IMG/VR virus record: IMGVR_UViG_3300025377_000002
DNA length: 35,767 nucleotides
Direction: 5' to 3' (one strand)
Source: a virus
Shown here: positions 5,772 through 35,767 of the stretch, one piece after another
Position numbering within the stretch: position 1 is the stretch's first letter
How the letters are laid out: each line of letters opens with the position of its first letter
Position numbers and translations under genes: made by a program
The notes under the pieces: model-generated
What the model was told of the DNA's origin: nothing
Databases searched by the model: none
What the model saw: only the letters and a program-made list of their open reading frames with translations

Positions 5772-6931
5772 AATTCTGTTAAATCAAATTGAAGTTTAGT
5801 ATATAGTATCTTTTCTTTTATATCGTGAATCAGATATTTTTTATTATTTCGAGTGATTGTCTTTGAATAATTAACATCAAGATATTTAGGAAAGGTTAAT
5901 TTTCTAAAGGCTATCTCACAGTCAATTCTAAGGCTTTCTTTTTGTGTTTTGAGATAATACACCCCTTTGCGATAAAGATACGCCAGAGCATCGTTTACGT
6001 TATAAATCTGAGCACCTGCCCCATCATCTGAGTTAGCGGTTAAGGTTACGGGGTAATTAAAGAACCTTCGTTCTAATCCTGTATAATTTACGTCTTGAAT
6101 ATATATCTTACCGTTAATTTCTACGAGTGGAAACTCAGGGTCAACGAATGTATAATTAGTCCTCTCGAACACGGGCGCTGAGTTGCTTGAGCCTCCACCT
6201 TGCCCTGTATCAAGTATAGGGTATAAGAATTGTATTTGTCTCCCGTTGTAGAATGTTTGAAGGTTTGTCAGAACTGGGTTAGAGTTAAAGATGCTTCTTA
6301 CATTACTTGTTTCCAATCTTTCGGTTGCAAACCGTGTGTCTATTGCTCCGTAGCTTTCTATATTGTTATAATCGCCAATTAATATTCTATTAGAATACGA
6401 ACCGTCACCTCTAGCATATAATCCTGTATCGAAGTAACTCCACGCACCACTTGACTTACGTAGTTCGTCTATTATAGCAAGATTTTGGTTTACTCCTGTC
6501 GTCAAGCTAAGGGTTACATCATTACTTATTAAGATAAACTCAAAGCCTTGTATTCTGTTGGCTGTAACAATTCCACTTTGATTGACGAACTGTTGATTAA
6601 TAAGCGTTGGCTCAGCATATAATGATTTGTAAATAGATGAATAAAACCTGACTTCTATTTGCCCCTGTGAGTCTACTTTTTTAGATGATTTATCTTGAAC
6701 AAATAGTAGATCATGTCCGTCTTTTTTAATACGTATGCCATAATCACTATTTTTTATAAAATTGTAAGCATCAAATGGTAAATTAGTATTAAATTTACAA
6801 GTTAGCTCATTTGGCTGATTAGTATTGTATGTAAGCTGAGCTTGTGTTACACCCTTTGATTGAGTGTTTATGGTAAACAGTGAATTATATTGCTCAGTAT
6901 CATCAAAAGGATTAACAATTTGTAGTATCAT
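5768..6931 (-). CDS. tail/baseplate protein (by position); start trimmed from the ORF track
   Basis: I place the start at ATG 6931-6929. This gives the genome-typical TAATATG junction with the upstream stop at 6933-6935, instead of a 53-nt overlap. Confidence 0.55.
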   Translation of the reverse strand: MILQIVNPFDDTEQYNSLFTINTQSKGVTQAQLTYNTNQPNELTCKFNTNLPFDAYNFIKNSDYGIRIKKDGHDLLFVQDKSSKKVDSQGQIEVRFYSSIYKSLYAEPTLINQQFVNQSGIVTANRIQGFEFILISNDVTLSLTTGVNQNLAIIDELRKSSGAWSYFDTGLYARGDGSYSNRILIGDYNNIESYGAIDTRFATERLETSNVRSIFNSNPVLTNLQTFYNGRQIQFLYPILDTGQGGGSSNSAPVFERTNYTFVDPEFPLVEINGKIYIQDVNYTGLERRFFNYPVTLTANSDDGAGAQIYNVNDALAYLYRKGVYYLKTQKESLRIDCEIAFRKLTFPKYLDVNYSKTITRNNKKYLIHDIKEKILYTKLQFDLTEL

Positions 6932-6932
6932 A

Positions 6933-7805
6933 TTAAGTTGTTGCAAGCAATAAACTGCCGTTCCAATAAGTGAAGCGCCGTCCACTAAAAACAGTTACGG
7001 TAGTTGATGTTCCTGCAGTACCATACAACTCAACGAAGTCGTTGGCGTTTAATTGTATTATTGTTTCTGCTAATGCAAAACCTGGTACGCCTGCTAATGC
7101 ACTTGTAAGTCTGTATGCGTGCTGCCAAGGTGCGCCGTTCTTATGATATTCGAAAAAGAAGTCAAAAGGAGATCCTGATAAAGAAGACAAAAGTGCCATA
7201 CCACCAAATTGATAATAGCCTGTAACAGGCGCTACAAATCTTGACGAAGCGGCAGTATAGTTGCTAGACAAATCGAATGTTTCTGTTGTCATTCCTATTT
7301 TAGCAGTCGCACCACCCGTAAATGACTGACTTGCTGTTAAATACGCTTGAAACATTATACGATTATTAAGATAGCGACTCTCAACTCTCCATTGGGTACC
7401 ATTTGGTGAGTATGTTCTTGATTCGTTAGGTATTGATATAACATTAGTTGTGGTTGCGGGCGCTATTGCATAAGCAGACGTTTCAACCGTATCAGAACCT
7501 GTACTTGTAACAGTAACTGTATTAAATGTAGTATCAATCTTTTTAATAGTGATTGATTGAAGTTGACCTGTGGCAGCGGGTAAGTTAACGACCTTATTGT
7601 TCTGAGAAGCGTCAACGTAGATAACAACCTCAGTATTAGCGGTTATGTTGTATGGACTTGCTGAGGTAGTAACCCGAGTAAATCCGTCAATCGCATTAGT
7701 GAAGTTCTTAAGCGGATTAAGATTAGCATTCATGAAGGCAGGGGTTGCATTATCCCCGTTCACGACTGCGGCTGCATTGGTTATTATTGGTGTGGTAACT
7801 GACAT
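6933..7805 (-). CDS. tail fibre/receptor-binding protein with a C1q/TNF-like C-terminal domain
   Basis: 290 aa. SRFVAPVTGYYQFGG, IIQLNANDFVELY and RRFTYWNGSLL match the C1q globular-head strand pattern. Confidence 0.55.
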   Translation of the reverse strand: MSVTTPIITNAAAVVNGDNATPAFMNANLNPLKNFTNAIDGFTRVTTSASPYNITANTEVVIYVDASQNNKVVNLPAATGQLQSITIKKIDTTFNTVTVTSTGSDTVETSAYAIAPATTTNVISIPNESRTYSPNGTQWRVESRYLNNRIMFQAYLTASQSFTGGATAKIGMTTETFDLSSNYTAASSRFVAPVTGYYQFGGMALLSSLSGSPFDFFFEYHKNGAPWQHAYRLTSALAGVPGFALAETIIQLNANDFVELYGTAGTSTTVTVFSGRRFTYWNGSLLLATT

Positions 7806-7806
7806 A

Positions 7807-8916
7807 TTATATAAAGGCTTTGAGTGTCTGTAGTGTTATCTGATTAGTAGCTGTTGAATGTAACATTAAATCATCAGTGTCTCTTTGAATAAGCAAATTA
7901 GGGTTATTGCTTGATTGCAAATAATGACTAAAGAATAGCGGGGTATTTGTATCTGAATCTACCTCGTAATAGCTAGGATCTATCTCATTCTGAGTAACGG
8001 GATCGTATAATAGATTATCAACTGAAATAAACAAAAGATCATTCGGATTAGCAACTGCGTCAAGCCACGTAATCTTCAGATCTGAGTCGGTGGTTAGGTT
8101 AGTTACTTGTATGAATTGGTTTTGACTCAGAGCGTCTAACAATATTGAATAGGTGTAGCTAGGGCGTGAAGTAGCAAGATCAAGCCCAGCGGTTGTGGTG
8201 AATAATGGTGTTGACGTTAGCGTTTGAGTAAACCCAGCGCTTACTGAATAATCTTCAACTCTAAAATATTTATCAAGTACCGACAAAGGTAGATCGCCTT
8301 GTAAGTATTCGTATTGTTGTCCTGTATTCGTTAAATTAGAAAAAGCAGGGAATGAGTTTATTTCATATGATCCAAACTCGATAGAGCCAACCGTTAAGAA
8401 CTCAAACATTTCTGGATCAGTAAACTTATACAGTGTCTGATTGCTGGTAAAGTAACTAAGTGTCTCATCACCTTCATAGAACTCTGGATTAGCAAGTATC
8501 AAATCAACATCATATCGCTTATACTCAGCCCCTTGTTCATTGATTCCAGAGAATACTTGAGGTAGCCCTGAACACTCTGCATATTGCCATAATACACGCT
8601 GTACTGATATGCCTTCTTGAATACCTTCCTCCCATACAAAGAACTTGCGGGGAGTATTTGAGAATAGCCCTAATATATAGTCTTGCGTGTACCGACTATT
8701 TGTTGGTAAAGAAAAACTTAATTTAATTACAGTATCATCAAGTTTATTTCTTTCATCTCCATTTAAGCGAGCCTCACCGTCAAATAATGCCGATTTTGTA
8801 CGCTCAGTTTTAACACGTGGTCTGTAGCTTAATCCTAAGTCTGAACAGTTAAAAACTATGAAGTCTCCATTACGTGGATCTCCAAATTGAAAGGGTATTT
8901 TATTGTCTAAAAACAT
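7807..8916 (-). CDS. distal tail protein (Dit-like, by position)
   Basis: 369-aa ORF immediately downstream of the tape measure gene. Confidence 0.5.
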   Translation of the reverse strand: MFLDNKIPFQFGDPRNGDFIVFNCSDLGLSYRPRVKTERTKSALFDGEARLNGDERNKLDDTVIKLSFSLPTNSRYTQDYILGLFSNTPRKFFVWEEGIQEGISVQRVLWQYAECSGLPQVFSGINEQGAEYKRYDVDLILANPEFYEGDETLSYFTSNQTLYKFTDPEMFEFLTVGSIEFGSYEINSFPAFSNLTNTGQQYEYLQGDLPLSVLDKYFRVEDYSVSAGFTQTLTSTPLFTTTAGLDLATSRPSYTYSILLDALSQNQFIQVTNLTTDSDLKITWLDAVANPNDLLFISVDNLLYDPVTQNEIDPSYYEVDSDTNTPLFFSHYLQSSNNPNLLIQRDTDDLMLHSTATNQITLQTLKAFI

Positions 8917-16428: not shown

Positions 16429-17538
16429 CTATGCAACAGCGTAGTAGTTCCAAGCTGCAGGAGCTTTAAGAACAGCAGCCATATAAGTTGCAGCACCTAC
16501 AGTGATTTCACCTTCAAGGTAGCTTTGGCGATCGTTCTGTGGGTTGAATACAGTGATTGTATCAAATTCAGCAGCACCTCGGTAAAGTCCTAGAGTGTAA
16601 GGAAGTCCGAAGAGTACAGCAGAGTTAGTACCTCCAGTTTGAGCTTGGATAACGTTTGAAGCGTTAACAGTGTATGTTGAGAGAATACCATTAGTAAGGT
16701 AGACTGGGAATCCTGCGAAGTATCCTACGAGTCCAACGGTTGGTCGGCGTCCATTTGGATAGTCAGCTTGGAAGTGTCCAGCTGAGAATACAGTAGCGTT
16801 CTGGAATGCACCGTCAGCAGTTTGCTCACGAAGCATCTTTGAGAATACAGTATTGTTCATCAAGAACACATGACCAGTTCCTGGCTGAGAATATAATCCT
16901 CCAAGGTTTCCGATCATTGCAAGCATTGCGTCAGTGATTGGTCCATAGGTAGCAAGTCCAGTCGTGTTGATTGCAGCAACTGAAGCATTGCTAGTAACAG
17001 CAGCAGCAGCTTTGCGATCAGCAAGAACAAGTTTCTCGTTCTCAAGAGCGTTCTCGAAAGAGGCGATCAACTGAGTTCGATCAGGAGTTCGTGCGATTAC
17101 ATCTTCACAACCTTGAATTTCAGCTCGTTCTCTTAGAAGAGTAGCCGTTCCAGTTGCGAAAGTAGAGATTTCGTTGTCAGTTGCAGTTCCGCAAGCGATT
17201 TGTGAGTATGTACCGTTGAGACTAAAAGAGTTAACCGTTACATTGTGGTTTTGGTTAGTCTTGTAGTCTACACCAGCCTCGATGAATACACCACCTTGAG
17301 TACCAACGAAGGTAATAGGAGTATCAACACGAGTTTCAATAAGTCCTTGTCCAGTTGCAGCACCTGCACCAGAAAAGGTCTTAAGGTTGTCAATTGATTG
17401 TCCAATGATAGGAGCGAAGTCAATTGGTGCTTGGTTATTAGTAACCAAGAATTTGTTAATTGTATTTACCCATCTAGATGCACGTCCTGAAACGTCAGTA
17501 CTAAGTTGAGTAGTTTGTTCTTCTACGTTAGTAGCCAT
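16429..17538 (-). CDS. major capsid protein (presumably HK97 fold)
   Basis: 369 aa, following the scaffold gene. Gly/Ala/Thr-rich, with locally higher GC and strong codon bias. Confidence 0.75.
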   Translation of the reverse strand: MATNVEEQTTQLSTDVSGRASRWVNTINKFLVTNNQAPIDFAPIIGQSIDNLKTFSGAGAATGQGLIETRVDTPITFVGTQGGVFIEAGVDYKTNQNHNVTVNSFSLNGTYSQIACGTATDNEISTFATGTATLLRERAEIQGCEDVIARTPDRTQLIASFENALENEKLVLADRKAAAAVTSNASVAAINTTGLATYGPITDAMLAMIGNLGGLYSQPGTGHVFLMNNTVFSKMLREQTADGAFQNATVFSAGHFQADYPNGRRPTVGLVGYFAGFPVYLTNGILSTYTVNASNVIQAQTGGTNSAVLFGLPYTLGLYRGAAEFDTITVFNPQNDRQSYLEGEITVGAATYMAAVLKAPAAWNYYAVA

Positions 17539-17539
17539 A

Positions 17540-18175
17540 TTAAATAAATGTTTTTTCGTTGTTAATTATATATTCCGCATAATCCCCATAATAAGCTTTA
17601 GCGGTTTTAGTGTTGTCGATTTCCTCAGCTTCTTCTTTAGCAACCTCCTTAGGTTCCTCAGTAGTTTCTGCTTCAGTCTTCTCGTTCGTGATTTCTTCAG
17701 TTGATTCCTCCTTAGGTTCCTCAGTGGGTTCCGCTGTAGGCTCTTCTTCATTCTTCGCGTTTTCTTTAGGCATGCAAGCTTTTAACTCTTCAATATCAGT
17801 CATCATAGAATCAATTTTGGTTTCCATTTCAGACATCTTTGATTCGTACATAGCTTTCATTTCTTCAAGTTCTGTTGGTTCGGATACCTCCTCAACAACT
17901 TTCTCTGTGCCTTCTTCCGATTCGATACTTGGTGTTGCATCACCGTTTTCGTCAGCGTCCGTCATAGACTTAATGTTTTCGATGGTTTCCACCTCACTTG
18001 ATAAGTCAAATTCTTGACCGTTCTTTGTGAAGTTTAGTCTGTAAGTTTTGCTGTTGTCGATAAACTCAACGCAACCTTCGTTGTCTGATGTGAATTTAAC
18101 TACGCCAGCATTGTTTGTTTGCACCCCCTCGTTGGAAAGTACAGACTGTGCGTTGCTTGTTAGTATATCATACAT
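17540..18175 (-). CDS. capsid scaffolding protein
   Basis: 211 aa, extremely acidic with a helical Glu/Lys/Thr/Pro low-complexity C-terminal half. It lies between the protease and the MCP. Confidence 0.7.
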   Translation of the reverse strand: MYDILTSNAQSVLSNEGVQTNNAGVVKFTSDNEGCVEFIDNSKTYRLNFTKNGQEFDLSSEVETIENIKSMTDADENGDATPSIESEEGTEKVVEEVSEPTELEEMKAMYESKMSEMETKIDSMMTDIEELKACMPKENAKNEEEPTAEPTEEPKEESTEEITNEKTEAETTEEPKEVAKEEAEEIDNTKTAKAYYGDYAEYIINNEKTFI

Positions 18176-18210
18176 AGCATTAAGACAGAAAGTTAATGTT
18201 GACTATTTTA

Positions 18211-18223
18211 CAAATAATGACTA
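18211..18223 (-). promoter_or_regulatory. copy 2 of the exact 13-mer CAAATAATGACTA
   Basis: 35 nt upstream of the scaffold start codon (18175). On the plus strand it lies just before ATG 18228. Confidence 0.45.
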
Positions 18224-18227
18224 GTCA

Positions 18228-18437
18228 ATGACTATGAAAAAAATTGATAAGTCTTGGCAAGATAGACGTTATATTAACGCTTTGAACGTAGATAAAGAGC
18301 AGGCTACTATATTAAAGAATAAAGCTAAACAATACGCTTTTACACGTGCTCATTTACTGCGTGTGATTATTCAAGCGTATTTGGATGGCAAGCTCGATAT
18401 TTCAGAATATCAGCCAGACTGGTCTAAAGAATATTAA
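18228..18437 (+). CDS. RHH-like small protein encoded antisense to the late operon
   Basis: 69 aa. RRYINALNV (strand), KEQATILKNKAKQYAF and TRAHLLRVIIQAYLDG (helices). Its 3' end overlaps the protease gene by 14 nt convergently. Confidence 0.5.
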   Translation: MTMKKIDKSWQDRRYINALNVDKEQATILKNKAKQYAFTRAHLLRVIIQAYLDGKLDISEYQPDWSKEY

Positions 18438-19686
18438 CTTTATATTTTGATTTAATATTTACACGATACGGCTGTAATACTGTATACTCTCTATTCTGCT
18501 CAGCACTAGAAAAGATAATTGACTCTATGTTGAAGCTTATATTCTTAGCTATTTCTTTAATGCTTTCACGGTAGCCTTCCGCATTACCCTTTTGCAAATA
18601 GGCCAGTGTTGTATGTGCTATATAATCAGGGTACTCTGACTCGTATGGTAGTGTCTTTAATAATTCATTTGCTTTGTTGAATCTTTCGTCTGCCATTTCG
18701 AGAACTAAAACGTCATAATCGTCTTTTTCAAATATAGTTACACCAATACACTTTGGGTTGATTTTAGTATTATAAGTCCCAACGAGAGTAAAAACATTAG
18801 TCCAGTCTTGTGATGCAAATAGTACGTTTTCTATTTGTTCTTTTGTCACACTAGGCAATAAGCCATATAAAAGCGTTGTGTGTGGGTTCTTTTCTATTCC
18901 ATCTTTTATTGGATCGTTTGGATCAACATACAAATCTTCTTTGCGAATAATCTTAGTCAGAGGGTTCAATATATCATCTTTGTATTTCGCCATCACACAA
19001 CCGTAGTTTTTGCTCTTTTTATTAATCAACTCAAACGGGATTTTGCTTGCCGTCTTCATATTAACAATCTCGTCTTCAAACTCTACATCAACATAGTAGT
19101 GATTATCATTATCAACATAGACCGTTTTAACGTTTCCGATTGTATCAAAGACTTTTACTCGTTCCCCTAGCTTGTACTGCTTAGCCAACTCTTCATCTGT
19201 AACAACGGTAAACTTAGCTTTAGGATTGGCTGGATCACCTGTCACTGTTAGCTCATTGATCTCTACCTCGGTGTCTATGCGTTGCTTAGTCTTTTGATTG
19301 GTCAACCAGTTCAATGTTTTCCAGTTGAGTGAAAAGCTTGTCTTCTTGTTTGCTAAAATATCTTGTATTAATTCTTGATCAGTAATATTAGCAACAACAT
19401 CAATTTTCATCTCTAAAGGTTTTGGTGAGTCAATAGAATAGTCTTCAGGTGCGTATTCCATGTTGAGTACATTACCAAGCTGTCTGTTACCATATTTACG
19501 CTCAAAACCATGCTCAGCCATGATCTTACCACCTTTATCAATAAACTTCTTATATGACTGTTTAAATGCGTTTGGCGAGATAGTGATTGATTCACCATGC
19601 TTATCAAGGTGATTAGTGGTTGCAGTGCCACGGATTACAAGCCCGCCTGCTGTTAATGATTTGGTGTTGATTATAAAGTCGATCAT
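18424..19686 (-). CDS. prohead protease (HK97/S78-type) fused to a C-terminal 2H phosphoesterase (LigT/2',5'-RNA-ligase-like) domain
   Basis: 420 aa. N-terminal part: GLVIRGTATTNHLDKHGESI...AEHG...SFSLNW...ELTVTGDPANPKAKF. C-terminal part: two HxTx motifs, NPHTTLLYGL and IAHTTLAYL, about 90 aa apart. Confidence 0.7.
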   Translation of the reverse strand: MIDFIINTKSLTAGGLVIRGTATTNHLDKHGESITISPNAFKQSYKKFIDKGGKIMAEHGFERKYGNRQLGNVLNMEYAPEDYSIDSPKPLEMKIDVVANITDQELIQDILANKKTSFSLNWKTLNWLTNQKTKQRIDTEVEINELTVTGDPANPKAKFTVVTDEELAKQYKLGERVKVFDTIGNVKTVYVDNDNHYYVDVEFEDEIVNMKTASKIPFELINKKSKNYGCVMAKYKDDILNPLTKIIRKEDLYVDPNDPIKDGIEKNPHTTLLYGLLPSVTKEQIENVLFASQDWTNVFTLVGTYNTKINPKCIGVTIFEKDDYDVLVLEMADERFNKANELLKTLPYESEYPDYIAHTTLAYLQKGNAEGYRESIKEIAKNISFNIESIIFSSAEQNREYTVLQPYRVNIKSKYKVNIL

Positions 19687-21842
19687 ACTAATTTAATTAA
19701 TTTCTTTCCGCATTTACAATTTATTCTTTCGCCTGGTGTCTCCCCGTTGATTCTTTGACCATAGCGGGCTGTCATGCCTACCAATACAAAGTGTATCTCT
19801 CTTTTATCTATTGATCTGCTTAATAGCCATTCCCAGCCAATATTATTGTTTTTTTTTGACACAATATCAACCGCAGCATTGTAAGCCCTGCCAGCTTCAT
19901 TATCGGCCAAGAGCTTAGCACGGTCTTTAATCCTTCGCCTGAATAGCTCCATTGCTTCCTTGCGGGTCGTTGCCATTGTAAGGACTGCCATGATAAGCCC
20001 TACTGTTGTGTCATCTAAGCTACTTGACACTAAAGGACTGTCAATTGAATTATCTCCGCCGTTCTCTACTCCGAGTAATGACTCAACTCTTTTATTAGCA
20101 TAGTCAGTCACTTCCTTATTGACCTCAGCCCTTTCTGCGTTTGTAAGCGATAAGCCTAATTCTTCAATCTGATTAATAGCGTCAATCTTACCAAGAGTCA
20201 TTAAGTAGTTAACATAGTAGGTCATCAATCCAACGTCTAAGAAGCTAGCCAGCGGCGTTAGTTCCTCTCTGATTTCTTCCTCAGTAAGTGAGCCATCAGC
20301 GTCAACGGTCTTCTTGTTAATTATAAAGTCAAAGGCGTTGATCTGCTCAGTGTAAGCCTGTTCAACCATGTCTTGAAGCATTTTGGCTCTATCGTTCTTG
20401 ACTACTACTTCGGTTGGTGAAAAGCCCTCATCACGTTCCTTTTTAACCAGTTCTAAAAACTTCTTGATTCGTTGCTTATCATTACCGTTTAGTGACTTGG
20501 CATTTTGAATGTATGATTTAATGTATTCAGCGGATACAACCGACTTAATATTCTCTTCTACTTCGTCTTGTGCTTCATCAGTCTGAACATCTCCCTCTTT
20601 TAGTTCACCCTCTTTAACAACATTAGAGCCGATCTTTCTGAACTTATCATCATACTGTACTTCATCATCAGTATAACCCAAGAATCTTGTTTTTGCTTCG
20701 TATGCTGAGAATAGACCGCTTGCAAATCCAGCGTTGGCAACCTTCATCATGTCATCAAGAGTACTGATAACCATTTCATTTGGCTTCCATATTAGCCCTG
20801 CATACTCTGCTTTATTAGCTACTACCTGCAATACAAAGTTATTGATAAATTGCCCTACCATAGCTTGAGCGGGGTCAATCGTTTCTTCTTTGTAATTCTG
20901 CATTACGGTTTTTTGCTCACCTTGTCCAAGGCCTCCTGTGGATACTTTAAGTAATTGGTAAGGGTAACCAAACGCATTAGCAGTCTTAACAGCTATGTAT
21001 TTCTTTTCTTCAATGCTCAAGCGTGCTTGGATCTCCTGCTTAATTTGTTTGAGTTCTTTTACTCCTGTATATACTCCTGTCTTGTAACGTGAGCGTGGGT
21101 CGTTGAGTTGCTTGGCAGTTTCAACTAAAGCGTCCAATTCGTCTTTTGAAAGTCCCTCATTTGGGATAATAGCAACGCCAAAGAACGAGTTGTTTAGTAG
21201 GAACTGATTGAAGTTATCTCTATCAAGGCTTACTTGATTAAGATCATCATAAAAAGAAGTTAGAGGTGATTTACCAAAGAACTTAGAATTGATTGACGGT
21301 ATTCTGAATACTTTAAAGTCATCTTTAATATCAAGCGTAGTATACTCAAACCTCCATGTAAGCCGTTCGATCTTGAACCCTTGAGTTTGCCAAAGAGTTA
21401 CTTGGTCACTTGGTATTAGTTGGATCTGTTTAGTAGTATCTTCTTCATTGAATAAAGCAGGGTTTACTTGTCCATAGATTAAGCGGTGTCGAACTAGCTC
21501 AGATGTTAACTCTTCGAGATTGTACTCAGCATAGAGCTTGTCAGTTAGGTCTTGATCTACAACACCATCTTTATCATACAGTTGACCGCCTAGAGCTGCG
21601 ACTCTCTCAGCAATCTTATCAATAGGTGTTTGTACTTCATTAAATACTTGATAGTAAGTGTGGTAAGTATGGAATGGTGGGGGTGTTACTATGAACTGAG
21701 CGTATTGTTGTAGGGAGGGTGGTAGAGCGGAGATTTTGAGATTGTCCAGTGTTTGTGGTACAGAATAATCAGGGCGTGCAATTGCAGGCTTAGCTTGATT
21801 GAATGCACTGAACCCAGCTCTGATTCTATCTTGTAGTCTCAT
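19683..21842 (-). CDS. portal protein fused to a Mu F/SPP1 gp7-like minor head protein domain
   Basis: 719 aa, next to TerL. The C-terminus ...GMTARYGQRINGETPGERINCKCG matches the MuF-type P.H.NC(R/K)C ending. Confidence 0.75.
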   Translation of the reverse strand: MRLQDRIRAGFSAFNQAKPAIARPDYSVPQTLDNLKISALPPSLQQYAQFIVTPPPFHTYHTYYQVFNEVQTPIDKIAERVAALGGQLYDKDGVVDQDLTDKLYAEYNLEELTSELVRHRLIYGQVNPALFNEEDTTKQIQLIPSDQVTLWQTQGFKIERLTWRFEYTTLDIKDDFKVFRIPSINSKFFGKSPLTSFYDDLNQVSLDRDNFNQFLLNNSFFGVAIIPNEGLSKDELDALVETAKQLNDPRSRYKTGVYTGVKELKQIKQEIQARLSIEEKKYIAVKTANAFGYPYQLLKVSTGGLGQGEQKTVMQNYKEETIDPAQAMVGQFINNFVLQVVANKAEYAGLIWKPNEMVISTLDDMMKVANAGFASGLFSAYEAKTRFLGYTDDEVQYDDKFRKIGSNVVKEGELKEGDVQTDEAQDEVEENIKSVVSAEYIKSYIQNAKSLNGNDKQRIKKFLELVKKERDEGFSPTEVVVKNDRAKMLQDMVEQAYTEQINAFDFIINKKTVDADGSLTEEEIREELTPLASFLDVGLMTYYVNYLMTLGKIDAINQIEELGLSLTNAERAEVNKEVTDYANKRVESLLGVENGGDNSIDSPLVSSSLDDTTVGLIMAVLTMATTRKEAMELFRRRIKDRAKLLADNEAGRAYNAAVDIVSKKNNNIGWEWLLSRSIDKREIHFVLVGMTARYGQRINGETPGERINCKCGKKLIKLV

Positions 21843-21878: not shown

Positions 21879-21891
21879 CAAATAATGACTA
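21879..21891 (-). promoter_or_regulatory. copy 3 of the exact 13-mer CAAATAATGACTA
   Basis: 36 nt upstream of the portal start codon (21842). It overlaps the TerL stop codon. Confidence 0.45.
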
Positions 21892-23385
21892 GAAGATAAT
21901 ACCTACTACTTTTGCCTTCTCTTTCATCTTGTAATTATCTAAACATCCCGAGATCATATCAACAAAGTCATCATGCACTCCTTTTTGTGGGAATGCCAGT
22001 AATTGATCCAGTGCAGTCTTGTTTGATTCATGTTTGTGGGGCAGTATTATTCTATTAGCTATGAAATGTGGCTTGTGTGGTGTAAAGTGGCTTACCTTAT
22101 CCGCTGAATACTTTAACTCTTCAATAGGTAAACTTAACCCGTATTCTTCTTTTGCCAGTTTCTTAATCCAATACCCAAAACCTTGATTAGCTTTCTCATC
22201 ATAAGTAAATCGTCCTACTTCGTACCCTTGAATTATAAGTTTTTTATAGAACTCGATAGACAAGCGGGCTTGCTTTTCTACGTCTAACTTTTCGAGGATA
22301 TAGTCGAGTAAGTAGTAATTGCTGTCGCTACCTTCTCCAATCGCTCCTAAACAAAAATAGTCGCTTGTTTGCTTGCCAGTATGGGTAGTATCAGCATGTA
22401 GATATACTTTCTTAATCTCAGGAAGCTTGACTTGATTAGCCTGCTCTTGGGCATCAGTCCAGAACCTTAACCAGTCAAACTTGACCATACCACTGCTTAC
22501 TAAAAGCGGATTACATAAATATTCTTGGCTAAATGTAAACTCATCTTTTGCCATTTCGTTAAGCTGGTCGGTTGTCTTCCAATCTGGATCAACCGACTCA
22601 CCGTTAATCAAAGCAGGTATCTTTAGTTTATCCCAGTTATGGTATGGTGGTTCACCTTTGAATATCGTCTCAATTATATCTGTAGGGTGCAAGGGTGTGT
22701 TTAATATCTCCATTATTCCTGTCTCTGAAAGTGCTGGTGTCAAGGCTTTCTTATACCAATCAAGAGACTTCGTACGCATCTCTTCACTCCTTACATCTTC
22801 ATCATCCATTATATCATCTGAAATAATCTTTGTTGGCCTTGAACCTTTATCAAGTAATCCTCTAGGATTTTGTCCTGTTGAGATAGTTCTTATTCTTGTT
22901 TTACCAAATATTGTTAAATCGGATTTATTCCATGAATCTTTGTCATGTATTGGCTCACCGTATATCCAGCGAATATTCTCGTTAGTTTCAAACTCGTCTT
23001 TGATAGCCTTGAGTTTGTCAATACTCATCTTATCGTTATATGAGTTAATAACTACGTACGAGTGCGTGTTGTAGATAGCTTCATATACTCCCGCTAGTAC
23101 GAGTTGAATTGAAGATTTGCCCGCTCCTCTATATGCTTTGGTTGCTTTGTGGGGCTTATTCCTTACCCCTATTTGAATATGATCTAGTAATTGATAGTGT
23201 ACGTCTTTAAATGATCTGTAAAAGTAGTGTGGTAATACGAGATATGCAAAAAGAGCTATTAACTCTGGATCTGCTAAATCTTTTTTAATAGATGCTTTTG
23301 TTATTGTGTCCCCCTGCGATTTGATACATCGCTCAATATTGGCTTTGTATTCTTCAACGTATCTTTGATTAATCCTTTTTACCAT
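21889..23385 (-). CDS. terL: terminase large subunit
   Basis: 498 aa. Walker A YRGAGKSSI, an ISDDIMDDE acidic motif, and a C-terminal nuclease-like region with HDDFVD. Confidence 0.9.
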   Translation of the reverse strand: MVKRINQRYVEEYKANIERCIKSQGDTITKASIKKDLADPELIALFAYLVLPHYFYRSFKDVHYQLLDHIQIGVRNKPHKATKAYRGAGKSSIQLVLAGVYEAIYNTHSYVVINSYNDKMSIDKLKAIKDEFETNENIRWIYGEPIHDKDSWNKSDLTIFGKTRIRTISTGQNPRGLLDKGSRPTKIISDDIMDDEDVRSEEMRTKSLDWYKKALTPALSETGIMEILNTPLHPTDIIETIFKGEPPYHNWDKLKIPALINGESVDPDWKTTDQLNEMAKDEFTFSQEYLCNPLLVSSGMVKFDWLRFWTDAQEQANQVKLPEIKKVYLHADTTHTGKQTSDYFCLGAIGEGSDSNYYLLDYILEKLDVEKQARLSIEFYKKLIIQGYEVGRFTYDEKANQGFGYWIKKLAKEEYGLSLPIEELKYSADKVSHFTPHKPHFIANRIILPHKHESNKTALDQLLAFPQKGVHDDFVDMISGCLDNYKMKEKAKVVGIIF

Positions 23386-23761
23386 TTGGGAGTAATGTTA
23401 ATGGCACTGCTAAACTTTCGCCGTCTTTACCCGTCATCTCTTGGCGTGTGCTGAACTCACCTTTAAGTTTACGCTCCAAAAATTTCAAAGCCATATCGGG
23501 GTCGGTCTTGATCGACTTGACCAGTGTTTGGCGTGCTTCGAGGACTGGTCTTTGTTTCAAAAGCTCTTTTCTGAGGACAAACTTTGGGTACGTTGCTTCA
23601 TAATCATAAAGAGCATCTTTAGAAACCCCAGCATAAAAGCACGCTTCTAAATCAGTACAACCAAGTGCCCACGCCTGTTCAAGTTTGTCCACGACTGAAC
23701 CGTTGATTTTTGCGGGTCTTCCAGTCTTTTTCTTTTTAGGGTCTACTAAAGGTCTCGGCAT
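23369..23761 (-). CDS. terS: terminase small subunit
   Basis: 130 aa. TGRPAKINGSVVDKLEQAWALGCTDLEACFYAGVSKDALYDY is a typical TerS HTH N-terminus. It overlaps the terL start. Confidence 0.7.
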   Translation of the reverse strand: MPRPLVDPKKKKTGRPAKINGSVVDKLEQAWALGCTDLEACFYAGVSKDALYDYEATYPKFVLRKELLKQRPVLEARQTLVKSIKTDPDMALKFLERKLKGEFSTRQEMTGKDGESLAVPLTLLPNGKKD

Positions 23762-23763
23762 AA

Positions 23764-24399
23764 CTAAAATAACATTTCTGGTAATTCTTCTAATTGAATA
23801 TCGGGGTTTAACTCATAATTCTTTTTCTCAATTAGAGTTTTCAAAGCTTTATTATTTTGACTTTCAAAGTTTAATTCTTGGTCGATATCGCTAAAAACAA
23901 GACTGGTAAAGTCTTTATAAAATGAACACAATTTTTCGTCTTCGATAATCGTGAAACTTTCCAATCTTTTATTTTGATTCAGATTCATAGATGTTTGAAT
24001 TAAAACGCTCCAATTATCGTTATACATAACAATGAACTTAGCGTGAGTGGGGATAGTTCTAATACAATTCCTACCAAATGCCCCGTTCAGAGTTCTAACA
24101 TACGAGGGCTGCCGGGCTTGAAAGCTTGGGTCGATGATCCATCGCATGTTTTTTATTTTGCCGTACTTAACAAAGTTTTCTGCTCTTTTAAGACTTGCAT
24201 TCGCCGCAGTCCAAACTGCTAAGTCAACTGAACACTCCCCAATTTGATCTGCTACATGCTCAACAATATCAATAAGATTATATTGACCAACGCTTAAGCA
24301 ATGATACTCAAATCCCTTTTCTATATTTGGCAATCGCTCAAACTCTGAATTAAGTATCAGTCTTTTAAGTGGTGATACTTTCTTTTTGATTGTTGGCAT
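23764..24399 (-). CDS. PLD-superfamily (HKD, Nuc-like) nuclease candidate
   Basis: 211 aa with a single HKD-like motif: IPTHAKFIVMYND...IQTSMNLNQNKRLES (HxK ... [GS]xN ... E). Confidence 0.5.
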   Translation of the reverse strand: MPTIKKKVSPLKRLILNSEFERLPNIEKGFEYHCLSVGQYNLIDIVEHVADQIGECSVDLAVWTAANASLKRAENFVKYGKIKNMRWIIDPSFQARQPSYVRTLNGAFGRNCIRTIPTHAKFIVMYNDNWSVLIQTSMNLNQNKRLESFTIIEDEKLCSFYKDFTSLVFSDIDQELNFESQNNKALKTLIEKKNYELNPDIQLEELPEMLF

Positions 24400-25649: not shown

Positions 25650-25730
25650 CTACTTCTTCAACATTCTTTCAATTATGTATGCAATCGGTAAAATGATATA
25701 GAAAATGAGCATTAATATTGTAGCTGTCAT
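25650..25730 (-). CDS. possible 26-aa membrane peptide
   Basis: MTATILMLIFYIILPIAYIIERMLKK. Its start forms an ATGA overlap with the methyltransferase stop. Confidence 0.3.
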   Translation of the reverse strand: MTATILMLIFYIILPIAYIIERMLKK

Positions 25731-26587
25731 AATAAATAATAGTTAGTTTCAAGTTTATTTGTGTATAAATTTTCTTTGACTTTGTTATTTGCAGTTGCTG
25801 ATAATGTGGATCTATGCTCAAAAGAATTTACCAAGTTCAACGTAGACTCATAGCTACTAAGATATATTGTATATTTGCTTTGCTCTATCCAGCTGTATAG
25901 CATTGCGTGGTCTACCTGCTCCTGATATTTAGCTGTATTAAAATAAGGTGGGTCAAGATATATAATAGTCTTATCAATAGGTGCTGTTATTGATACTTGC
26001 TCGTAAGATACATTGCTTATTACTAATCGCTCTAATTGCTCTAAATGCTCTAATTGCTGTAATCGCTCTAATCGCTCTAATTGCTGTAATCGCTCTAATT
26101 GCTGTAATTCAAACCTCCCTTCTATCTTCTTCTCTTCTATAAACTGCTTTAATAGTTTGTTTCTTGTCGCAGAAGTTCTATCATAACTATTTGCCATAAG
26201 GGAATCATGTGCTTGTTTTTTTATAGGCTCAACTGATTTGCCAAATAGGTAGTCTGACTGATTGTTTCCAAAGCTCCAGCACACTTTTGCAAGCCCTGAT
26301 CTCCAAGTATCCCCATTTTTTAATAACTCAAATTCTTCTCTTGAAATCCAATTGAAAAAGTCATCTGTTACACCGTCTCTTTGTATCTTTCTGAGCAATT
26401 CACAAACACCTGTATTAAGATCATTGTATATAACTTTCTTTCTACGTTTCAAAAACTCAAAAGATATAGCTCCACCTCCTCCAAATAAGTCATAAACATA
26501 TTCAGTTTCTGGATAAGCTGTAAGTATATGTGTAACTATTTTTGACGCTAACTTGCGTTTACTCCCCATGTACGGTAATCCAATCAT
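25727..26587 (-). CDS. dam: Dam-type (D12 class, alpha-group) N6-adenine DNA methyltransferase with a coiled-coil repeat insertion
   Basis: 286 aa. PYMGSKRKL, DLFGGGGAISFE (motif I) and IYLDPPYFN (motif IV). The insert is ELQQLERLQQLERLERLQQLEHLEQLERL. Confidence 0.85.
   Translation of the reverse strand: MIGLPYMGSKRKLASKIVTHILTAYPETEYVYDLFGGGGAISFEFLKRRKKVIYNDLNTGVCELLRKIQRDGVTDDFFNWISREEFELLKNGDTWRSGLAKVCWSFGNNQSDYLFGKSVEPIKKQAHDSLMANSYDRTSATRNKLLKQFIEEKKIEGRFELQQLERLQQLERLERLQQLEHLEQLERLVISNVSYEQVSITAPIDKTIIYLDPPYFNTAKYQEQVDHAMLYSWIEQSKYTIYLSSYESTLNLVNSFEHRSTLSATANNKVKENLYTNKLETNYYLL
26026..26110. repeat. tandem 9-bp coding repeat ((c/t)gct(c/g)taat)n inside the methyltransferase
   Basis: Read directly: cgctctaat tgctgtaat cgctctaat cgctctaat tgctgtaat ... 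It encodes LER/LQQ triplets on the minus strand. Confidence 0.85.
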
Positions 26588-28225: not shown

Positions 28226-28792
28226 ATGACAACTCAATCTACATCTCAAATTAAACTTAACACACCGCTTACTACTGATGAAATAGACTTTAGAGTGCAA
28301 TCAGTAGGATCATATAAGAAAGGTACTGAAGTGCAAGTATTCGCTATTATGTTAGCGTATAAAGATGCTCGGGTTGATATGAAGAGGCTTGACGATGTCT
28401 ACGGAGTTGATAAATGGCAAAAGACTTATGAGATAATCAATGGTAATCTTTTTTGTAAGGTTGGTATTTACTCAGAAACTCTTAGTCAATGGATTTGGAA
28501 AATGGACGTAGGAGTTCCTAGCAAAACCGAAGGAGTCAAAGGAGAAGCCTCAGACGCTTTTAAGAGGGCTTGCTTCAATCTAGGAATTGGTAGAGAACTA
28601 TACGAATACCCTTCAATTTTTATTAACCTTAATGAAGGTGAATATCAACAAAAAGGTGATAAGTATGTTATGACACCTAAATTCCAAAAAGGTCTTGTAT
28701 GGCAAAGTGGCTTCAACGTAGACGGTAAACTTGTATTACTGACCTGCGTTGATAGTAATGGCAAAACAAGATTTAATTACTCAGTAAAATAA
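28226..28792 (+). CDS. Rad52/Sak-type single-strand annealing protein
   Basis: 188 aa. KGEASDAFKRACFNLGIGRELYEYP is the hallmark Rad52/22-family motif, and RVDMKRLDDVYGVDKWQ lies upstream. Confidence 0.75.
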   Translation: MTTQSTSQIKLNTPLTTDEIDFRVQSVGSYKKGTEVQVFAIMLAYKDARVDMKRLDDVYGVDKWQKTYEIINGNLFCKVGIYSETLSQWIWKMDVGVPSKTEGVKGEASDAFKRACFNLGIGRELYEYPSIFINLNEGEYQQKGDKYVMTPKFQKGLVWQSGFNVDGKLVLLTCVDSNGKTRFNYSVK

Positions 28793-30281: not shown

Positions 30282-30656
30282 ATGAATCAACTAACACTAT
30301 CAGGACGCTTAACAGCAGATCCTGAAATCAGAACAACGCAGAACGGTAAGACAGTAGCTAACTTATCAATAGCAGATAATCAAGGCAAAGACAGCAACGG
30401 CAAACCGCTTGTCAACTTCTTTAACTGTGAAGCATGGGAAAAGAGAGCTGAGCTAATCCAAAACAACTTCAAAAAGGGTGATAATCTTACGTGCCTTGCT
30501 AAATGTAGAACTGATAACTGGGAAAAGGACGGTAAGAGCTATAGTAAGCAAGTGTGGACTATTAGTGAGATTATCTTTACTAATAGCAAGAAAGAGGCTA
30601 CAAACTCTTCTAATGAAGCTAAAGTCTACAACGAGCCTCCCTCAGTAGATGGGTAG
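30282..30656 (+). CDS. ssb: single-stranded DNA-binding protein (OB fold)
   Basis: 124 aa. MNQLTLSGRLTADPEIRTTQNGKTVANLSIA is the canonical SSB N-terminus. The C-terminal tail is atypical (no D-D-D-I-P-F). Confidence 0.75.
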   Translation: MNQLTLSGRLTADPEIRTTQNGKTVANLSIADNQGKDSNGKPLVNFFNCEAWEKRAELIQNNFKKGDNLTCLAKCRTDNWEKDGKSYSKQVWTISEIIFTNSKKEATNSSNEAKVYNEPPSVDG

Positions 30657-35346: not shown

Positions 35347-35748
35347 ATGACACTACTAAATAAACTACTAAATGAGCTTAAAACTAATGAAGAAGCTAGG
35401 GATAGATTAAATTCGCTTACACCAAATATTGATTGTTGGCTTGATGGTGATAATTGCTTATTCACCATTAGCGATCAATACTGGAATGCAATAGATATTC
35501 TGGATATGATAAGATTTGAGAATCTAGGTCAAGACTTCAAGAAAATAATAATAATGGCTATGCTCTCAAAAGGCGTAATGGAGTTTCTTGATAGAGATAT
35601 CACACGCGATAATGGCAACGGGTTTGTCTATGAAGATAATCTAGGAGAGCACCTATATCATGAATTCACCGAAGCTCTAAGAGTACACAAACCAGTAGAC
35701 GAAGCTATAAATATAATAGAAGAAATTTATGCAGAGTATGACAGTTAA
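35347..35748 (+). CDS. hypothetical acidic protein
   Basis: 133-aa ORF. It runs into the terminal repeat and, on the circular map, is followed after 29 nt by the HTH gene at 108. Confidence 0.6.
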   Translation: MTLLNKLLNELKTNEEARDRLNSLTPNIDCWLDGDNCLFTISDQYWNAIDILDMIRFENLGQDFKKIIIMAMLSKGVMEFLDRDITRDNGNGFVYEDNLGEHLYHEFTEALRVHKPVDEAINIIEEIYAEYDS

Positions 35749-35767
35749 AGAGATACAAATCCAGATG
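35669..35767. repeat. terminal direct repeat (second copy of 1-99)
   Basis: Verbatim identity, read directly. Confidence 0.95.

Follow-up and report, generated by a model that had tools for sequence, protein, structure and literature searches.

The window examined here is a stretch of viral DNA of 35,767 nucleotides (IMG/VR virus record IMGVR_UViG_3300025377_000002), in which one gene, at 18424..19686 on the minus strand (stop codon included), encodes a protein with a predicted HK97-type prohead protease at its N-terminus, a small beta-barrel in its middle and a predicted 2H phosphoesterase domain in its C-terminal half. The list of open reading frames (ORFs) gives 420 uninterrupted codons running from 19686 to 18424, and the plus-strand frame across 18424-19686 holds many stops. 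The earlier note on this DNA, made from the letters of the sequence, had placed the gene at these coordinates, which stand, while its strand had to be corrected to minus. The ATG of this fusion gene overlaps the stop codon of the upstream portal gene by 4 nt. The window begins and ends with the same 99 bp (1-99 and 35669-35767, an exact direct repeat), and for that reason it is taken as a complete genome that closes into a circle, about 35.7 kb long and with a G+C content of 37%.

The minus-strand gene order around the fusion gene is small terminase (TerS), large terminase (TerL), portal/MuF, fusion gene, scaffold-like gene and a gene in the position of the major capsid protein (MCP). The small terminase (23369-23761, minus; phrog_4102, 1.3e-15) and the large terminase (21889-23385, minus; phrog_38, E 1e-67) precede a portal with a C-terminal MuF-like domain (19683-21842, minus; PF04860 Phage_portal, 3.7e-10; phrog_2662), which lies directly upstream of the fusion gene and is translationally coupled to it; the MuF-like domain matches PF04233 Phage_Mu_F (1.7e-5) at amino acids (aa) 639-711, with an N-C-K-C motif at its end. 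Downstream there is an acidic 211-aa scaffold-like protein (17540-18175, minus), recognized by composition and position and kept in the related locus L001, which on the same grounds is a likely substrate of the protease. It is followed by a 369-aa protein (16429-17538, minus), which is assigned to the MCP position by synteny alone (L001, L003, L006 and L007) and finds no family match in Pfam or PHROGs. The fusion gene occupies the usual slot of prohead protease genes, and the position between the portal and the scaffold/MCP genes is also held in L001, L003 and L006.

Concerning the C-terminal half, Pfam, PHROGs, profile searches of PDB sequences and AlphaFold2 (AF2) models searched with Foldseek place a 2H phosphoesterase domain, Acb1-like or 2_5_RNA_ligase2-like, at aa 222-405 (18472..19023, minus). 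A motif scan finds exactly two H-x-T motifs in the whole protein, both H-T-T-L and 89 residues apart, namely NPH269TTLLYGL (H269-T-T at 18874-18882, minus) and IAH358TTLAYL (H358-T-T at 18607-18615, minus). An exhaustive HMMER search collected 5,784 representatives of the wider subfamily at E<=1e-3 (425 at 1e-30), of which the best 150 had their architecture annotated. Across 64 multidomain and 76 single-domain relatives neither the two His nor the two Thr ever vary, and since this invariance extends over some 140 proteins the motifs are not there by chance. The Pfam scan of the C-terminal half returns Acb1 (PF23474) alone, with E 6.4e-5 and 23.1 bits, the gathering score of this family being 27 bits; the match in PHROGs is phrog_755, 'RNA ligase' (E 6.3e-11). 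A profile of eight relatives matches, among PDB sequences, Acb1 7T26 (1.2e-6) and the archaeal LigT PH0099 (6.5e-6), and in these alignments (PH0099 LigT) the two HxT motifs coincide with the catalytic ones.

AF2 models aa 222-420 with a predicted local distance difference test score (pLDDT) of 79, and each motif His begins a predicted strand. When this model is compared with the PDB, the top 47 of the 50 Foldseek matches listed are 2H enzymes, with Usb1 at the top (1.7e-6) and the penguinpox cyclic GMP-AMP phosphodiesterase (1.1e-5), Acb1 (1.2e-4), LigT, AKAP18, coronavirus ns2 and rotavirus VP3 also present. We infer from the model that the HxT motifs lie in a 2H-type catalytic cleft, and judging from motifs and model together the domain looks like a catalytically competent 2H phosphoesterase. 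The earlier note had read a 2H domain from the two motifs and their spacing, and this assignment is borne out by their invariance and by the fold matches. A 2H domain translated separately, in the style of lambda C/Nu3, was also considered and rejected: no convincing Shine-Dalgarno sequence precedes Met209 or Met232, a result that is uninformative if the host does not use such sequences.

The N-terminal domain (aa 1-165; 19192..19686, minus) is assigned to the HK97-type (Peptidase S78) prohead proteases through Pfam matches in its family, Foldseek and hhalign. The window protein itself reaches 13.7 bits (E 0.07) against Peptidase_S78 (PF04586, gathering score 21 bits), over positions 36-156 of the 165 in the profile; the same model is matched by six of eight members of the protease family (best E 1.7e-6), and the relative P0009 passes the gathering score with 26.2 bits. 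The AF2 model of aa 1-221 (pLDDT 83) gives 198 Foldseek matches against BFVD at E<=1e-3 (best 2.5e-10), the best named ones being prohead protease, XkdF and COG3740 proteins. Against the PDB the same model shows no significant match, just a Tudor-like one for the barrel, and a profile search of PDB sequences with the N-terminal domain returns no match. In HK97 gp4 the catalytic residues are His65 and Ser114. A local hhalign alignment pairs window aa 17-163 with gp4 25-159, bringing together H59 with H65 and S119 with S114, as well as the segment ELTVTGDPAN with EISVCTFPAN, at a statistically weak E of 0.0065 against a single target sequence; a global hhalign was discarded as failed, the comparison having meaning only as a local alignment. 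The predicted catalytic His59 and Ser119 are encoded at 19510-19512 and 19330-19332 (both minus), and Ser119 is invariant in the alignment of the protease family. Family Pfam matches, fold and His/Ser dyad all agree with the S78 protease that the earlier note had proposed, and aa 1-165 are taken as a predicted active S78 protease with its dyad intact.

What had been described as a short beta-rich linker between the two enzymes is instead a small beta-barrel (aa 166-221; 19024..19191, minus), delimited by alignments, AF2 and Foldseek and present in every member of the protease family, whatever comes after it. AF2 places its strands at 176-217, as a four- or five-stranded barrel with pLDDT of about 70-78. 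Foldseek of the barrel gives a Tudor-domain match with probability 0.94-0.96 and E 0.4-0.7, hence a tentative Tudor-like resemblance.

At the other end of the protein, alignment and sequences reveal a C-terminal tail of 15 aa (QPYRVNIKSKYKVNIL; 18427..18471, minus) that the earlier note had missed. The tail YRVNIKSKYKVNIL resembles the Y-K-V-N-I-K motif found right after the barrel in relatives without a 2H domain, which in the sister phage L001 reads TVNIIPKYKVNIK and follows the barrel directly. The 2H domain therefore looks inserted before a retained C-terminal element. It is the C-terminus of HK97 gp4 that steers this protease into the prohead, and by analogy the tail is possibly a capsid-targeting or cleavage element. 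A stretch resembling the tail motif Y-[KR]-V-N-I-K, RWVNTINKF, occurs near the N-terminus of the MCP-position protein (17446-17469, minus) and as AWVNTINKF in L001. A regular expression for the motif matched the window's own tail (twice), residues 23-30 of the MCP-position protein and nothing else, a post hoc and weak test given that the expression was written after both occurrences were known. Cleavage or docking might rely on one motif common to the two stretches, which we regard as a lead.

Compared with HK97 gp4 and other S78 proteases, the window protein shares the His/Ser dyad, the E-L-T-V-x-x-x-P-A-N segment, the fold and the gene position, and its relative P0009, with a scaffold-like acidic tail, has an arrangement that is common among them. 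It differs in the extra conserved beta-barrel after the protease domain and in its enzymatic cargo, which replaces or precedes the usual C-terminal targeting or scaffold segment.

The clearest view of this cargo as a separable unit comes from L001, a sister phage (a contig of 35,282 bp) that aligns collinearly with the window (blastn, 76-80% nucleotide identity) from the portal gene on through those of the tail. The sole break in the alignment is a variable cassette at 18182..19028 (minus), which comprises the 2H domain and the 249-bp spacer behind it. The L001 protease (P0002; 10001-10789) has 262 aa and no 2H domain, and since the sister phage lacks exactly that domain, the 2H domain appears to be a swappable cassette. 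The slot at about aa 222 is empty in P0004, P0007 and P0008, holds an acidic scaffold-like tail in P0009 and an uncharacterised helical domain in P0003 and P0005, and in P0166 (365 aa, 28% identity) is filled by an InPase domain (PF18823, 1.2e-21; aa 224-324), a domain defined in polyvalent proteins. The presence of InPase in the 2H slot suggests that cargo in general can be attached at the C-terminus of the protease. The domain of P0003 (aa ~245-344) and P0005 (aa ~265-364) carries the pattern NYPxxAxxNAKKAIxW...GGTQxGWTRAGQLAR...SLSL and has no match in Pfam; of this domain P0002 retains just a few residues at either end, which looks like the outcome of an internal deletion. Outside the collinear part, the large terminase of L001 is another one (433 aa, Terminase_3), and between terminase and portal L001 encodes an additional BNR_4 protein of 653 aa (5879-7840). 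As the terminase region differs while head and tail genes are collinear, the two genomes are mosaic.

To find the nearest relatives of the window 2H domain, direct similarity was ranked by phmmer. Four proteins stand at the top, P0010 (portal-2H, 127 bits), P0026 (protease-2H plus an extra C-terminus, 120 bits), P0006 (protease-2H, 114 bits) and P0030 (portal-2H-MuF, 103 bits), and all other proteins searched score <=89 bits. A neighbour-joining tree of 157 domains, which is a quick distance tree with no support values, places the window protein (P0001), P0006, P0010, P0026, P0030 and P0125 in one clade, apart from all 76 solo (single-domain) proteins and from the fusions to PolyA_pol, GNAT and RNase T. 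The carriers in this clade are a protease in four cases (P0001, P0006, P0026 and P0125) and a portal in two (P0010 and P0030). The protease-2H clusters P0006 (35% identical), P0026 and P0125 have the domain order of the window, two of them in syntenic head modules. In L003 the protease-2H gene is followed by 207-aa and 361-aa genes; L006 reads TerL, portal, protease-2H-(MuF-like), scaffold, MCP; and L007 reads TerL, portal-2H-MuF and then a 276-aa protease without 2H, which belongs to the same family as the window N-terminal domain (E 7.8e-35). Taken together, these contexts indicate that one enzyme rides on the protease or on the portal within one phage group. The C-terminus of P0125 ends in H-G-C-R-C, read by eye as MuF-like and undetected as MuF by Pfam and by local MuF probes; if that reading holds, head-interior modules would have been shuffled among carriers.

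The fusion is rare, with four protease-2H and two portal-2H clusters found. A scan of IMG/VR with a head-clade 2H profile gave 80 loci, none above 39% identity; solos made up 69 of these, and no protease fusion was among them. A further homologue search with the head-clade profile gave 128 matches, of which the 120 listed consist almost wholly of short proteins with one domain and did not enlarge the clade. The rarity, and the absence of the fusion from the IMG/VR scan and from the matches listed in the further search (solos of about 180 aa), would speak for an artefact or a decaying remnant, be it a chimeric assembly, two genes joined by a frameshift or an inactive filler domain. Yet JGI, Logan and ENA together supply 7 contigs with a protein identical to the 420-aa window product, the same domain order recurs in three further clusters that are at most 35% identical to it (P0006) or of lower, unmeasured similarity (P0026 and P0125), and the protease His/Ser and both HxT motifs are intact. 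In view of the 7 contigs and the three divergent clusters an assembly artefact is rejected, and we hold this whole class of explanation to be very improbable.

All carriers of the clade sit in the head interior, which supports capsid targeting of the 2H domain and favours physical targeting over mere co-expression. The earlier note had called fusion to the protease a capsid-targeting route, and this part of its proposal gains comparative support from the head-interior carriers throughout the clade. From these comparisons, capsid targeting is plausible.

With respect to the substrate, the wider subfamily has to be considered. Most of its top-scoring members are solos of about 180 aa, 69 of 76 of which match 2_5_RNA_ligase2/LigT models and 64 of 76 Acb1; for the multidomain members the figures are 57 and 56 of 64. 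Partner domains among these 64 include PolyA_pol/tRNA-nucleotidyltransferase (17), GNAT (6), ART-PolyVal (5) and portal (2), and, by Pfam, SMODS-associated NUDIX, RNase T and S78 in one protein each, with five proteins labelled as RNase T by local jackhmmer. Many 2H relatives lie inside giant proteins of 900-2,300 aa with PolyA_pol/tRNA-nucleotidyltransferase, GNAT and ART-PolyVal domains, the giant or multidomain ones including P0056, P0061, P0064, P0067, P0092, P0114, P0129, P0133, P0148 and P0150; in P0012-P0015 the 2H domain is paired with an RNase T-type exonuclease. Pairing with PolyA_pol-type nucleotidyltransferase and RNase T leaves RNA-end chemistry open for the subfamily. Under an alternative explanation the architecture, and probably the capsid targeting, would be the same and the 2H domain would act on RNA rather than on immune signals, either as a 2',3'-cyclic phosphodiesterase healing the tRNA or RNA ends left by anticodon or toxin nucleases of the host or as a Usb1-like RNase on host RNA. 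The subfamily matches the 2_5_RNA_ligase2/LigT models about as well as Acb1, the top Foldseek matches are Usb1 RNases, the PDB profile finds archaeal LigT, the partners just listed point the same way, and a Usb1-like RNase role is among the options of Iyer et al. 2017 (PMC5512222).

Against action on RNA, the head-carrier clade is separate in the tree from the PolyA_pol and RNase T fusions, and its members match the Acb1 model in preference to 2_5_RNA_ligase2. In the PF23474 scores, P0030 (33.3 bits), P0140 (33.5 bits) and P0011 (30.0 bits) are relatives above the threshold, and P0026 (24.1 bits) and P0010 (19.2 bits) relatives below it. The scan of the 48 larger ORFs of the complete genome gave no RNA ligase, polynucleotide kinase or CCA-adding enzyme, and such families are likewise missing from the 25 listed of the 34 families matched by the immediate neighbours of 48 solo relatives. 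Present among these neighbours, in four IMG/VR loci, is a homologue of Tad6, a type I Thoeris inhibitor (8.5e-15), adjoining the solo 2H gene (L035 3439-3987, L041 3430-3987, L055 3445-3990 and L058 3445-3990); the four Tad6 neighbours are mutually 83-100% identical and so count as one lineage, not four. At one other locus a solo relative adjoins a homologue (5.1e-28) of Acb3, an inhibitor of CBASS (antiphage signalling that is based on cyclic oligonucleotides). These adjacencies are hints of anti-signalling gene islands. Because the clade prefers the Acb1 model, because the 48 scanned ORFs lack RNA ligase, kinase and CCA enzyme, and because the families listed for the solo neighbours contain no RNA-repair enzymes, those neighbours having Tad6 (a single lineage) and Acb3 (a single locus) among them, nucleotide immune signals are favoured as the substrate. 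This preference, drawn from sequence comparison, is modest, and action on RNA ends is a serious rival, possible though improbable; were it true, the protein would still be a packaged RNA-repair or RNase effector.

The proposed mechanism is as follows. The protease would enter the procapsid together with the scaffold, as HK97-type proteases do, bringing the 2H domain along, and proteolysis in Lys-rich junctions would release a folded domain of about 21 kDa, too large to leave the shell, which would be held in the head and then ejected with the DNA into the next host. A large unassembled pool, made late, would be active in the producing cell as well. By the 2H mechanism and in the manner of Acb1, the domain would cleave nucleotide immune signals and so blunt signalling defences, the candidate substrates being the cyclic di- and trinucleotides of CBASS and possibly cyclic oligoadenylates. 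The 2H domain is thus read, from the comparisons above, as probably packaged counter-defence cargo, and for the complete proposal, i.e. a head fusion with an active protease that carries packaged 2H anti-signalling cargo ejected with the DNA, we estimate a probability of roughly 0.5.

Several points weigh against this proposal. The resemblance to Acb1 is limited: the Acb1 proteins so far characterised, all of the T4/FBB1 type, give 5-15 bits with the window 2H domain by phmmer, hhalign to Acb1 (probability 95.6%, E 1.2e-8) covers only 51 columns around the second HxT, and the Acb1 Pfam score lies below the gathering threshold (23.1 vs 27 bits). The AF2 models were built from 8-sequence alignments, at pLDDT 79-83. 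Within the subfamily, the 17 of 64 multidomain members with PolyA_pol (CCA-adding-type) and the several with RNase T fit an RNA substrate. HK97-type proteases normally digest themselves, and the fragments exit the shell. Finally, CBASS fires late, so that there is no obvious need to deliver the enzyme ahead of infection to counter it.

It should be noted that the window 2H domain is not close to T4-type Acb1; by sequence it is a distant relative. With the anti-CBASS nuclease Acb1 (T4 57B; Erwinia phage FBB1, 7T26/7T27; PF23474) it shares the 2H fold, the two H-x-T motifs and the signature Y-P-D-Y-x-x-H-x-T-L-x-Y around the second motif, whereas Acb1 is a free-standing protein of ~150 aa and the window domain has ~185 aa, with extra N-terminal and central segments. 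To our knowledge Acb1 is not known to be packaged. In the T4-like Shigella phage Sf21 (L009) an Acb1 homologue, 57B (300-755), lies directly upstream of an internal head protein gene (828-1085), an adjacency which recalls the link to the head described here but which we take to be probably just the known T4 gene order. Hobbs et al. 2022 (PMC9117128) define Acb1 as a 2H enzyme that stands alone and has a lid at its C-terminus, which closes over the cyclic nucleotide; the signals hydrolysed by Acb1 are 3'3'-cGAMP and related ones. In the 222-420 AF2 model of the window domain, residues 187-199 of the model are of low confidence.

A second alternative, absent from the earlier note, arises because prohead proteases have been reported as a CBASS trigger. 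The prohead protease T4 gp21 cleaves the activation loop of the CD-NTase (cGAS/DncV-like nucleotidyltransferase) and is enough to activate CBASS late in infection (Hobbs & Kranzusch 2026, bioRxiv 10.64898/2026.03.04.709575), and in an earlier preprint the mutations that allow escape from type I CBASS were located in a fusion of prohead protease and scaffold. The window protein might then couple trigger and antidote, the fusion equalising their amount, timing and location in the producing cell, with packaging and injection irrelevant or incidental. The protease-2H architecture in four independent clusters (P0001, P0006, P0026 and P0125) agrees with such a coupling. However, the same 2H clade also rides on the portals P0010 and P0030, and in L007 the adjacent protease has no 2H, so that the feature common to the clade is head-interior location and not proteolysis; moreover, a small diffusible signal needs no co-localised enzyme, and a separate late gene would give the same timing. 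Mainly because of the portal fusions, we rate this coupling lower and consider it unlikely. In its strict form, a self-masking device in which every trigger molecule carries its own antidote and the portal/MuF fusions are secondary relocations within the late head module, it is likewise doubtful; if true, it would be the first viral immune trigger physically fused to an inhibitor of the pathway it triggers.

As regards the proposal of packaged anti-signalling cargo, capsid-packaged, injected anti-defence proteins include IPI* and Alt of T4 and DarA, DarB and Hdf of P1. The logic proposed here is the same as for these proteins, i.e. targeting to the procapsid, processing by the head protease, ejection with the DNA and action before the expression of phage genes. 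They differ in acting by anti-restriction or RNA polymerase modification and in using short targeting peptides or dedicated partners, whereas here a predicted nucleotide phosphodiesterase is covalently joined to the protease itself. In the literature searched, no signal-degrading anti-defence enzyme shown experimentally inside a phage head was found, and the one virion anti-CBASS protein found there is an ejectosome protein that inhibits an effector.

The domain family itself has a precedent. Fusions of 2H domains with MuF or portal were reported by Iyer et al. 2017 (J Bacteriol; PMC5512222), who noted that linked RNA ligases are absent, and proposed either the RNase role mentioned above or degradation of nucleotide signals by the injected proteins; they also state that the assemblin-like peptidases of polyvalent proteins are always C-terminal. 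The earlier note knew of no described protease-2H fusion, and none was found in the literature reached (Acb1/2H with prohead protease, MuF, virion or mass spectrometry). Its claim to novelty was nevertheless overstated, since 2H domains on MuF and portal, with predicted injection, were already described in 2017; the protease-2H fusion is a variation on an already predicted theme, that of injected 2H effectors on head proteins. Both have a 2H domain, of one broad type, joined to a carrier of the head interior whose gene lies in the head module, and P0010 (portal-2H) and P0030 (portal-2H-MuF) have exactly the architecture of those effectors. The differences are that the carrier here is an N-terminal prohead protease, the paper having no protease-2H pair, and that the protein is a compact three-part one instead of a giant multi-effector polypeptide.

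The fusion family offers a compact system, with a small complete genome, a natural sister without 2H and the protease or the portal as carrier. It bears on the 2017 prediction that the 2H domains of head proteins are injected to pre-empt nucleotide-based immunity, on whether the C-terminus of the prohead protease takes up cargo in general (tails of the 2H, InPase, MuF-like and scaffold-like kinds being found there), and, in view of the 2026 finding, on whether phages offset the immune triggering caused by their own maturation protease.

A final point concerns other features of the genome. The 249-bp spacer between the fusion and scaffold genes, in which a scan for promoters and terminators gave nothing over background, is filled by a 69-aa ORF on the plus strand (18228-18437). 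This ORF overlaps the 3' end of the fusion gene by 14 nt, lies inside the segment without homology to L001 and has no match in Pfam or PHROGs; it may be a small moron gene or spurious. An endonuclease gene (23764-24399, minus; phrog_16945, 4.5e-40) adjoins the small terminase, and elsewhere the genome encodes a D12-class N6-adenine DNA methyltransferase (25727-26587, minus; 4.1e-20), a Rad52/22-family annealing protein (28226-28792, plus; 1.7e-9) and an SSB (30282-30656, plus; 1.8e-28).

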